From an uncultured virus (IMG/VR IMGVR_UViG_3300010938_000019) (lineage: Duplodnaviria > Heunggongvirae > Uroviricota > Caudoviricetes), in the IMG/VR virus record IMGVR_UViG_3300010938_000019: DNA of 64,000 nt. One strand, given 5' to 3'. Shown here in pieces: positions 61,573-63,806 of this stretch (positions are counted from its first letter, which is position 1; each line of letters begins with the position of its first letter). The position numbers and the translations under genes are program-made. The notes under the pieces are model-generated. The model ran no database searches. It was not told the DNA's origin and worked only from the letters and a program-made list of their open reading frames with translations.

Positions 61573-61601
61573 AATAAGAAGCCCCAGCATTGCACCGGGG
61601 C
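61571..61601 (-). terminator. intrinsic terminator after the major capsid gene
   Basis: GCCCCGGT-GCAAT-GCTGGGGC then TTCTTATTTT. Confidence 0.7.
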
Positions 61602-61621: not shown

Positions 61622-62845
61622 TTAGTCTTTGATATAACGTAGGATTGTGATACAAGAAGGGCGAGTAGTGAAAAGAGCTTGGTCAGAATAACATCTCATT
61701 TCGTAACCGTTAGCGTTCTCAAGAAGCTTGAAGAACTCTCCTTCGTATCCAGGTGGATCGAAAGTTACGTCTGTAGAACCAATTCTTACCAATTCTTTCT
61801 CACAGAAAGCATAAGCAAAACCAGCTTTGATATAAGAAGAAGCCATGATTTTGATCATTCCATTCTGTCCGTAGAATTTCAATGACTTAGAACCTTGCTC
61901 CAATTGAGCAGAAGAGTATGAAGCATCATAGTCACGCTTAGCAGCTTGTTCAGTCAAAAGGTTCTTCCAAGAACGATTTGATACTAGAACAGTTACTTCT
62001 TCTTCAGCAAGACCTTTGTCCATCATAGCGGCAACAGCTTCTTCGATTTTATCGAAAGAAAGAACTGCAGCACCAGTATTAGCGTCAGATCCAACGTTAA
62101 CAATGTTACCTTGGAAAAGAGGCTCAGAAGAGTTATTGATACCGAAAAGAGTTGCTTTAATTTCAGCAATTCTATGCATACCAAGTTGCTCTTTGAATTC
62201 AGGAGTTACACCAGCAACTACTGCACCAGCAAAGAAAACTCTATCTGTAGCAACTACACCAGCAACTGACAAGTTACCATCAGTAGTGATTCTCTTGTTT
62301 TCAAGATCAACAGCAGTGATCTTGAAAGAACCGCGTAAAGTAGCTAAAGTAGCATCGAAAATGTCGATTTCATGTCCAGTCATTCCTAACCAGATTCCAG
62401 CAGCCCATTCATAAGCTTCTACGTTAAAAGCAGCAGTACCTTGCAAAGAGTCAACTTCAGCAAGACCTTTCTGTCCGTAAAGCATAGCACACTCTAATCG
62501 GTGATGCATAGACTTAAGCATGTTTCCAACGAGAAGTTTAGTACCTCTTTCGAAAGAGTTTTTACTAGAAACAGCGCGAGAAGCAGCTCCAACAGAAATA
62601 GCAGAACGTAATACAATCTCGTATCCTTTGATTGTAGCGTTTTTCATTGGGAAAGAAACGATGTCATTAAGAGCAAAAGCTTCGCCTTCGCTACCGCCGT
62701 AAGTTACGCCACCTTCCAAACCGATGATTACTGGCTCGTTAAAGCTCAAACCAAGTTGCTTATCTCCCTTAGAGAATTTAACAAGGTTAATGAACTTTGC
62801 CGAAGCTGGAACGAGGTCTTTAATTTGAGAAGAGTATACTTCTTT
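61622..62845 (-). CDS. major capsid protein, exon 2
   Basis: Frame is open from 62845 (KEVYSSQIKDLVP…) to the stop at 61622; followed by a strong terminator; spliced product 426 aa. Confidence 0.8.
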   Translation of the reverse strand, partial: KEVYSSQIKDLVPASAKFINLVKFSKGDKQLGLSFNEPVIIGLEGGVTYGGSEGEAFALNDIVSFPMKNATIKGYEIVLRSAISVGAASRAVSSKNSFERGTKLLVGNMLKSMHHRLECAMLYGQKGLAEVDSLQGTAAFNVEAYEWAAGIWLGMTGHEIDIFDATLATLRGSFKITAVDLENKRITTDGNLSVAGVVATDRVFFAGAVVAGVTPEFKEQLGMHRIAEIKATLFGINNSSEPLFQGNIVNVGSDANTGAAVLSFDKIEEAVAAMMDKGLAEEEVTVLVSNRSWKNLLTEQAAKRDYDASYSSAQLEQGSKSLKFYGQNGMIKIMASSYIKAGFAYAFCEKELVRIGSTDVTFDPPGYEGEFFKLLENANGYEMRCYSDQALFTTRPSCITILRYIKD

Positions 62846-62889
62846 CAGTTACTTCATATACTTAGCTAGTCGTATATGACCTGACTATA

Positions 62890-63570
62890 TCATCCTTCTA
62901 TTGAAGGGGTTGCGCTGTAAGACTTTTTTTGATACATGAGTTCTAGATATCTAAATTTATGTTGCATAGATTTAAATTCTAATACAAAAGATCGGATTTT
63001 TTCCCATATCTTTAGTGAATCTGAATTGTTTATTTTCAAATAAGGATATTGTTTATTTCCTTTTTTTGAATAACAGATTCTTAAATTTACGTCAAAGTTG
63101 GTTTTAAACCAGTCTATTATTTTAGCCTGAGTTTCTAACGTTTGATCACAAGTGAATAATCTAAGTCTTGCTCCATAGCATTCTGTTTTATCAGCTTTTA
63201 CAACACTAGCCTCTACATACCCATCATCCATTAACCATACGGCTAATGCCATTTCTGGATGTCTTATAAAGGGAAGTATTCTTGCTAAGTCTTTCTTATT
63301 ATTAGGATAAGTAAACTTTTTCCAGGATCGCATTCTCACATCAGAAACTGATAATTGAACTGCTTTTCCTTTGTGGCTATTTCTACATCTTACTTCTCTT
63401 CCGAATATCTCGGTTAGAAGTTTAGCTTTCCATGCTTGATAGTCAGCTTGTACAATTCCATGCCCTATTGTTATAGCAGCACTGGCTTTGTTAGAAGTTA
63501 AGTGTAGACAGCCATCACCTAATAAAAGAAGTAAGCAAAGACTTCTTTTGTCTTTATTCATTAAACTCAT
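62890..63570 (-). CDS. intron-encoded two-motif LAGLIDADG homing endonuclease (226 aa)
   Basis: LLLGDGCL and LAVWLMDDG motifs; GGAG SD before ATG 63570. Confidence 0.88.
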   Translation of the reverse strand: MSLMNKDKRSLCLLLLLGDGCLHLTSNKASAAITIGHGIVQADYQAWKAKLLTEIFGREVRCRNSHKGKAVQLSVSDVRMRSWKKFTYPNNKKDLARILPFIRHPEMALAVWLMDDGYVEASVVKADKTECYGARLRLFTCDQTLETQAKIIDWFKTNFDVNLRICYSKKGNKQYPYLKINNSDSLKIWEKIRSFVLEFKSMQHKFRYLELMYQKKSYSATPSIEG

Positions 63571-63663
63571 ATATACTCCAACACCAAACGGTTCAGGATA
63601 AAAAATGTCTTTAGTCGATGAACGTTCCGTATCTCTACGGCTTCGCTGCTGATTGCCCTTTTC

Positions 63664-63692
63664 ATTATAGCAGGGGTTCCAGCAATTCACAA
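63664..63692 (-). promoter_or_regulatory. sigma70-type promoter inside the intron core
   Basis: TTGTGA, 17 nt, TATAAT with TG extension; about 90 nt upstream of the endonuclease ATG. Confidence 0.55.
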
Positions 63693-63749
63693 CCTTTTCC
63701 GACTTTAAGTCGTGAGGGGTTACACCTCAGTTGTTCTCAGATTACTCTA

Positions 63750-63806
63750 AAACAACCCATTTAGTGAAGCCTGGGTGTTGGCTTTTGAAGGATCTAAATT
63801 CGCCAT
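63750..63806 (-). CDS. major capsid protein, exon 1 (MANLDPSKANTQASLNGLF)
   Basis: AAGGGA SD, ATG 63806; 19 codons followed by an in-frame TAG that belongs to the intron. Confidence 0.85.

Follow-up and report, generated by a model that had tools for sequence, protein, structure and literature searches.

The window analysed here, a stretch of 64,000 nucleotides (nt) from the uncultured virus IMGVR_UViG_3300010938_000019 (Caudoviricetes), holds a major capsid gene on its minus strand, and this gene very probably carries a mobile group I intron with a homing endonuclease between codons 19 and 20. The source record is a complete phage genome of 81,833 bp with terminal repeats. A preliminary description made from the letters alone had proposed a 19-codon first exon, a 904-nt intron and a continuous frame of 426 amino acids (aa) after splicing. 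All of its exon and intron coordinates hold on recomputation, and scripted joining of the exons gives 427 codons including the stop.

The recorded gene call (P0001) is a 375-aa product that starts from TTG 62749 and is 51 residues shorter than the spliced frame, a truncation by automated annotation that the preliminary description had stated correctly. Relatives P0005 and P0007 are likewise called short (341-342 aa) from interrupted genes. Residues L15, K20, Y23, L30, K36, F43, K48 and G51 are invariant in 21 homologues and all fall within the 51 aa lost from the call. Capsid phylogenies, structures and proteomics databases built on such calls lose the conserved N-arm, and the chief practical value of the present findings is in correcting capsid annotation in this phage group.

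The splice junction in relatives and metagenome contigs

A search with the capsid found 853 related proteins, of which 120 were listed and 15 fetched. All 13 of the full-length intron-less homologues among those fetched (412-439 aa) run unbroken through ...LN(G/A)x(F/Y)|KE.Y..., where the bar marks the junction. At the nucleotide level 84 capsid loci were inspected (80 metagenome loci plus L003, L004, L005 and L059); codons 19|20 are uninterrupted in 68 of them and interrupted at the site in L004, L183 and L059, while 11, whose contigs have their edge within the gene, stand outside the count, and L158 and L167 are without a call. The consensus of 46 intron-less junctions is closely like that of the intron-bearing alleles. 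The 13 homologues carry both the end of exon 1 and the start of exon 2 and do not begin at the SFNEPV region, the outcome that the preliminary description had named as contrary to its reading.

Contigs of four metagenome runs, the kind of run being labelled 'DNA?' (a guess), were placed on the region; none of them covers the interior of the intron, which speaks neither for nor against splicing. One contig of 561 nt from run X1 links 62845 to 63751, with 905 bases skipped and one base between. It differs from the window at 15/463 nt and 4/97 nt (about 96-97% identity) and is without exactly the 904 nt of the intron; the single base at the joint makes exon 1 end in TTC where the window has TTT, a synonymous change. 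With X1 as DNA, this contig would come from a close relative whose allele has no intron; with X1 as RNA, it would be a spliced transcript from that relative. At the level of sequence both readings confirm the junction to the base, and only the DNA reading supports mobility. The junction proposed in the preliminary description matches the point where the intron-less homologues run on and where the X1 contig joins.

Ribozyme structure and covariation

In a 3-kb search the window intron matches the Rfam model RF00028 at 63776-63518 (42.5 bits, E = 8.6e-9), and this is the sole match in the 64-kb window at E <= 0.01. An ORF-less intron of 333 nt (ORF, open reading frame) occupies the same site in L004, a contig whose capsid is 78% identical, and gives 62.4 bits (E = 6e-15; 1171-1493). 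This score was obtained with L004 alone; a search of L003, L004 and L005 together (19.5 kb) gave no match at E <= 0.1, which is a filter effect. A second match in the phage genome (G001 2506-2622, 13.1 bits, E = 0.034) was taken as noise.

Fifteen introns at this site were aligned, and pairs were counted per helix in scripts; MAFFT shifts the variable stems by at least one column. All seven positions of P1 pair in the window, and the U.G pair at the splice site is present in 15/15 introns. Over the family 6.53 of 7 P1 pairs form with the intron's own partner vs 4.92 with swapped partners, the guide covarying with 14 distinct exon strands. P3 likewise pairs at 7/7 positions and covaries, with 6.73 own pairs vs 4.65 swapped (3.93 vs 1.85 in the outer 4 bp) and 13 distinct 5' strands, all compensated. 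P7 is of the form x[bulge]GACUA / UAGUCy across the family, its outer pair being U-A, A-U, G-C or C-G and paired in every intron. P2, P2.1, P4, P5, P6/P6a and P9 are formed by differing sequences across the introns, and so is P8 in 14/15, RNAfold calling none in L206. The terminal G of the intron and the U preceding the 5' splice site are each present in 15/15. The helices that the preliminary description had paired by hand (P1 with its U-G pair, P2, P3, P4/P5, P6, P7, P8 and P9) were thereby recovered. Helix covariation across the 15 homologous introns far exceeds the swapped-partner controls, and this pattern of pairing identifies the insert as a group I intron. The alignment also provides a covariation-supported structure model of a LAGLIDADG-bearing phage intron. 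Coordinates are collected in Table 1.

One family member, L206 (1314-2224), has a junction Phe codon that ends in G, not T. Its splice site appears one base upstream (CTCTT|...CTAG|C), with exon 2 supplying the third codon base.

Table 1. Positions of the capsid exons, the intron helices and associated features in the 64,000-nt window.
Feature	Position	Strand	Details
Capsid exon 1	63750..63806	-	19 codons; ATG at 63806; last codon TTT 63752-63750
P1	63730..63756	-	Exon 63756-63750 GUUGUUU with internal guide 63736-63730 GAACAAC; U.G at splice site
Group I intron	62846..63749	-	904 nt; begins with in-frame TAG 63749-63747; final base G
P2 + P2.1	63700..63729	-	P2 63729-63725/63717-63713; P2.1 63712-63708/63704-63700
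P3 5' strand (GGUUGUG)	63688..63694	-	Pairs with 62914-62908, 7/7 positions
P4-P5-P6/P6a domain	63619..63687	-	Best-aligned part of the Rfam match
P4	63684-63679 with 63652-63647	-	
P5	63675-63672 with 63659-63656	-	
P6	63646-63644 with 63624-63622	-	
P6a	63640-63636 with 63631-63627	-	
P7 5' strand, U[C]GACUA	63612..63618	-	Bulged C; pairs with 62887-62882
Closing long-range helix, 5' strand	63600..63611	-	Pairs with 62930-62919, -7.6 kcal/mol
P7.1-like hairpin	63576..63598	-	UCC 63598-63596/GGA 63579-63577; inner stem 63592-63590/63585-63583
LAGLIDADG homing endonuclease gene	62890..63570	-	226 codons + TGA (62892-62890)
Closing helix, 3' strand	62919..62930	-	Within the last codons of the ORF
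P3' (CGCAACC)	62908..62914	-	Within the ORF
P8 hairpin (CCUUC-AAUA-GAAGG)	62894..62907	-	Within the ORF
J8/7 + P7'	62882..62893	-	AUGAUAUAGUC, invariant or nearly so in 15/15 introns; TGA of the ORF in J8/7
P9 hairpin + tail	62846..62881	-	Stem 62879-62872/62861-62854; tail ends in terminal G 62846
Capsid exon 2	61622..62845	-	407 codons + stop 61624-61622; first codon AAA at 62845
Terminator-like hairpin	61581..61601	-	9 bp, GC-rich, then T-run; directly past capsid stop; consensus scan only

The capsid protein and the endonuclease

No Pfam family matches the product of exon 2; in PHROGs it hits phrog_14242, major head protein (E = 3.2e-12). No PDB chain was found by sequence with a capsid profile of 22 family members, and among GenBank phages the capsid has one match only, 27% identical. 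An intron-less homologue that is 86% identical (P0002) was modelled with a 21-sequence alignment, giving a predicted local distance difference test score (pLDDT) of 78.4 and a predicted template-modelling score of 0.81. The top Foldseek match of this model is the capsid of phage SU10 (E = 1.7e-9, probability 1.00), and the VP1, HRP29 and P4 capsids as well as encapsulins are also matched at probability 1.00, with moderate template-modelling (TM) scores of 0.35-0.66. The PHROGs match and the model of the homologue bear out the capsid identity and HK97 fold given in the preliminary description, and as modelled the interrupted gene encodes an HK97-fold major capsid protein. The intron sites map to the N-arm and to a low-confidence loop region of the P0002 model. 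At the other end of the gene, the terminator-like hairpin at 61581-61601 lies between it and the next structural gene.

The product of the intron ORF matches Pfam PF03161 (LAGLIDADG_2) over residues 15-185, scoring 60 bits where the cut-off is 25 (E = 3.7e-16). Neither of its two motifs, LGDG with D19 and WLMDDG with D116, varies among the homologues (14/14), G18-D19-G20 and W112-L113-M114-D115-D116-G117 being unchanged in all of them. No PDB chain was detected by sequence. An AlphaFold2 model (pLDDT 91.9) has two alpha-beta-beta-alpha-beta-beta-alpha halves, and its best Foldseek match is I-SceI (E = 4.1e-11, TM 0.63, 215 aligned columns for 226 aa, 18% identity). I-WcaI is also among the best structural matches, while the maturases bI3 (2ab5) and I-AniI (1p8k) rank lower. 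The profile match, the invariant motifs and the I-SceI-like model agree with the LAGLIDADG assignment made earlier, and on the model the ORF product is a monomeric, two-motif, I-SceI-like LAGLIDADG enzyme. Its presumed cutting site is the conserved junction sequence of capsid alleles that have no intron.

Placement of the ORF in the ribozyme core

The ORF sits in the P7.1/P7.2 region, between P7 and P3', as the preliminary description had placed it, and the overlaps noted there also hold. The end of the ORF runs through P3' and P8, with its TGA in J8/7, and the final 41 nt of the ORF go into forming the closing helix, P3', P8 and part of J8/7. The closing helix averages -7.9 kcal/mol with own partners across the family vs -4.1 with swapped ones (sd 2.5, n = 180), and it would draw P7 and P3' together across the insertion of about 700 nt. 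The endonuclease alignment is conserved to about ...KFRYxExxYQ and variable beyond, which fits RNA structure dictating the C-terminal sequence.

The Shine-Dalgarno sequence of the endonuclease, GGAG (63579-63576), serves as the 3' strand in the P7.1-like hairpin. This hairpin is kept in the 14 ORF-bearing introns, where it covaries (UCC/GGA vs UUCU/AGAA), and it is present in 15/15 introns including the ORF-less one of L004, which has a second, P7.2-like hairpin. Because the Shine-Dalgarno sequence lies in P7.1 and the last 41 nt of the ORF lie in the core, endonuclease translation and ribozyme folding on one RNA are probably mutually exclusive. ORF-less and ORF-bearing introns at one site form a natural pair on which the accommodation of an endonuclease gene in a ribozyme core can be studied.

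Michel and Westhof reportedly distinguished subgroup IA by extra helices between P7 and P3'. Additional helices P7.1/P7.2 at this place are the IA criterion in the cited passage of a review (PMC3984707). The extra hairpins between P7 and P3' therefore point to an IA-type architecture, and we infer a phage intron of that subgroup.

A sigma-70-like site lies at 63664-63692 on the minus strand (TTGTGA, 17-nt spacer, TATAAT with upstream TG), in P3-P5 and upstream of the endonuclease gene. Its TATAAT is not conserved in the intron family, and the promoter scan, with 9 sites vs 6.1 +/- 1.9 expected, does not exceed chance overall.

Distribution and probable mobility of the intron

Endonucleases 45-56% identical to that of the window are encoded at 14 viral-contig loci (12 distinct sequences), and in 14/14 the gene lies in an intron at the same capsid codon boundary. 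The metagenome locus L183 also has an endonuclease-bearing intron at this boundary. Where a long match was obtained, the capsids at endonuclease-bearing loci are 29-43% identical to the window's protein. Altogether the intron and endonuclease are found in capsid genes 29-81% identical to that of the window, a spread out of step with host-gene relatedness; set beside the 68 of 84 capsid loci that are without an intron here, this is the presence/absence pattern of a mobile intron.

The P4-P5 core motif of the intron occurs in at least 117 viral contigs. PHROGs were scanned (E <= 1e-5) with 58 of the 82 ORFs upstream of the motif, the other 24, from short loci, being left out. Matches were to DNA polymerase (5), primase (2), photosystem II D1 (4), major head protein (5), head scaffolding protein (8), radical SAM (2), tape measure (1) and portal (1). 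In the eight scaffolding-protein cases the intron may lie close to the beginning of the following gene, as it does in the window, and the same ribozyme core type is found in or beside the capsid genes of several other viral contigs. L014, L072 and L086 have 2-3 copies of the intron core within 700 nt; the upstream exon in L014 and L086 is photosystem II D1, and these look like multi-intron psbA genes.

By sequence the first ~75 capsid codons look like an intron hot-spot. The capsid gene of L004 (1118-4074) fits five exons and four introns (333, 216, 813 and 311 nt) within the first 70 codons, with internal exons of only 11 nt (1851-1861) and 15 nt (2675-2689). A U before the 5' splice site and a G at the end are found in all four of these introns, and the joined frame is 427 aa, with 97 of its first 100 residues matching intron-less P0006. 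Intron 1 is the one matched by RF00028 at 62.4 bits, intron 2 is matched weakly (20.1 bits), and intron 3 has a GIY-YIG-like ORF by eye. Further interruptions are seen around codons 51-56, 61-66 and 70-78 in L059/L209, L162, L163, L174, L175, L206, L207, L208, L210 and L211, and a contig of run X3 departs from the window sequence at about 62724, codon 60-65. In L215 and L216 (about 1270-1314) capsid exon 1 is without an in-frame ATG, GTG or TTG; ATC stands at the position of the relatives' ATG, six bases past AGGAG, and may be a non-canonical AUC start.

Against GenBank phages the window DNA has one match, of 78 nt in the core, to Pseudoalteromonas phage PH357. This stretch (L006, KX822733.1, 118037-118113) is 83% identical to the P3-P6 core, lies just downstream of a DNA polymerase coding sequence and has no feature annotated; the polymerase gene is probably split by an intron that has gone unannotated. 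The endonuclease has three matches among GenBank phages (24-27% identical), and the one inspected sits between two large genes, not in a capsid gene.

Proposed mechanism and alternative explanations

If the gene carries a mobile group I intron as proposed, the pre-mRNA would fold as P1-P2-P2.1-P3-P4-P5-P6/6a-P7-(P7.1 + ORF)-P3'-P8-P7'-P9. Guanosine would attack past the U (63750) that takes part in P1's U.G pair, the terminal G 62846 would set the 3' splice site, and the ligated exons would yield a 426-aa capsid with the N-arm that is conserved in relatives. The in-frame TAG past the 5' splice site would halt ribosomes ahead of the ribozyme; an in-frame stop at this place is a described intron feature in the review passage cited (PMC3984707). 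Cutting of an intron-less allele by the endonuclease, followed by repair from an intron-bearing copy, would spread the intron by homing. We infer splicing and catalysis, the activity and target of the endonuclease, and the translational coupling.

More tentatively, the family could represent an undescribed intron-endonuclease lineage dedicated to F19|K20 in one large family of capsid genes of aquatic phages, with the first 70 codons as a hot-spot and an RNA switch that commits each transcript to capsid mRNA or to endonuclease. If true, a built-in RNA switch would couple homing to late gene expression.

Several points count against a splicing, mobile intron. The 42.5 bits of the window intron lie below the RF00028 gathering score of 50 bits, with the 3' half of the model mis-aligned into the ORF, so that the covariance-model check suggested in the preliminary description returned a match and fell short on its score; the low score can be laid to the ORF splitting the core, the true P3', P8 and P7' lying about 700 nt further on. 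P3' was the best site in a 35-position window, and an equal search in the other introns narrows the P3 margin to 6.80 vs 5.80. In L206 P4-P5 is divergent, P3 is weak and P8 goes uncalled, and P1 fits only with the register shifted by one base. Run X1 is only guessed to be DNA, and if it is RNA its joint is no evidence of an intron-less allele. Among the listed public runs that hold DNA of the locus, none is on record as RNA, and splicing is accordingly put forward as a prediction.

The other explanations considered fare worse. An intein was ruled out, as the first codon of the insert is a stop in frame and the ORF has both a reading frame and a Shine-Dalgarno sequence of its own. The intron might need its LAGLIDADG protein as a maturase, capsid production then depending on prior translation of the ORF. 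Some LAGLIDADG proteins are maturases, that of a Thermotoga 23S rRNA intron among them (cited passage of PMC3984707), and the bI3 maturase and I-AniI are among the structural matches, albeit weaker than I-SceI. Such a dependence is nevertheless unlikely. The ORF-less L004 intron keeps a full core at 62.4 bits, and since its capsid must be expressed, the RNA core apparently works without a cis-encoded protein. Invariance of both catalytic aspartates (14/14) points to selection for DNA cleavage, and the Shine-Dalgarno sequence in P7.1 argues for translation of the ORF being repressed, not required. With catalytic residues conserved and an ORF-less sister intron in existence, we consider it likelier that the protein acts as a nuclease and in homing than as an obligatory maturase.

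A decayed, splicing-dead intron, or a plain endonuclease insertion, would leave a truncated capsid of 375-407 aa from an internal start and make the 19-codon ORF irrelevant. This would suit the gene callers' choice of TTG 62749, the listed runs of the locus, none of which is on record as RNA, and the sub-threshold Rfam score. It is very improbable in a complete genome with terminal repeats in which the exon-1 peptide and the first 32 exon-2 residues are conserved in intron-less relatives, eight of these residues being invariant. Every helix keeps pairing by compensatory change, U at -1 and the terminal G are retained, and the internal guide sequence follows the exon sequence in 14 versions, a tracking that would not persist without splicing. 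Least credible of all is an assembly chimera, in which foreign DNA was joined into the capsid gene. The record is metagenome-derived and intron coverage is zero in the four runs, but the same architecture (exon 1, ribozyme 5' half, homologous endonuclease, ribozyme 3' half, exon 2) recurs on independent contigs at 16 further loci (14 distinct sequences), and P1 and P3 pair across the supposed joints.

Comparison with known systems

The preliminary description implied that group I introns are rare in phage capsid genes, which was overstated, as cases are in print (passages of PMC3706429 and PMC7886860). In mycobacteriophage LittleE the major capsid gene has a probable group I intron of ~0.8 kb whose splicing was shown by reverse-transcription PCR and N-terminal sequencing, and the reaction had to proceed with enough efficiency that the virion's most abundant protein could be provided (Pope et al. 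2013, PMC3706429, in the passages on this gene). As in the window, the intron bears an endonuclease, a U precedes the 5' splice site and a G ends the intron. Unlike LittleE, where the endonuclease is of the HNH type and on the opposite strand, the window has a same-strand LAGLIDADG gene between P7 and P3' and splicing that is predicted; the two also differ in host phylum and in where the intron sits within the gene. Lactococcal phage Tuc2009, known here from a citing sentence in PMC3706429, likewise has a group I intron in a capsid subunit gene. In the Delta and Zeta groups of crAss-like phages, major capsid protein genes are split by group I introns, spotted via endonuclease domains, with up to four inserts and one gene in five fragments; that work names LAGLIDADG as an endonuclease or maturase encoded by introns (Yutin et al. 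2021, passages of PMC7886860). The examined passages of that paper hold no RNA structure or site-specific family. The five-fragment gene is comparable with the five-exon L004, whereas the capsid and phage lineages are unrelated to those of the window. A literature search that covered openly available main texts found no description of the present intron family, subscription-only papers and the supplements of cited papers lying outside its scope.

Phage T4 introns belong to subgroup IA and have P7.1/P7.2. In the T4 td intron with I-TevI, and in others, overlap of ORF and core ('core creep') and sequestered ribosome-binding sites are described, and ribosome entry harms splicing of td (Edgell, Chalamcharla & Belfort 2011, passages of PMC3073962). 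The window resembles td in that a hairpin hides the ribosome-binding site and the ORF's 3' end feeds core helices. I-TevI is a GIY-YIG enzyme encoded in the P6 loop of an intron in a nucleotide-metabolism gene and its ORF overlaps P6a/P7, whereas the LAGLIDADG ORF of the window follows P7.1 and overlaps the closing helix, P3', P8 and J8/7.

I-SceI is encoded by a mitochondrial group I intron. The endonuclease described here is, like I-SceI (PDB 5a0m, 1r7m), a two-motif single-chain enzyme of similar size; the context of I-SceI is organellar rRNA vs a phage capsid gene in the window. Jug phages have 2,513 group I introns and 17 LAGLIDADG genes (passage of PMC12880540), and phage introns mostly carry GIY-YIG, HNH, PD-(D/E)xK or EDxHD enzymes (review passage, PMC3984707). 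From this list a LAGLIDADG passenger is less usual, though not new, and LAGLIDADG enzymes do ride phage introns. Current concepts are unchanged by these findings, the kind of element being already known in phage capsid genes; the window and its relatives add a well-supported case in which late structural genes, beyond the genes of DNA metabolism, host mobile group I introns.

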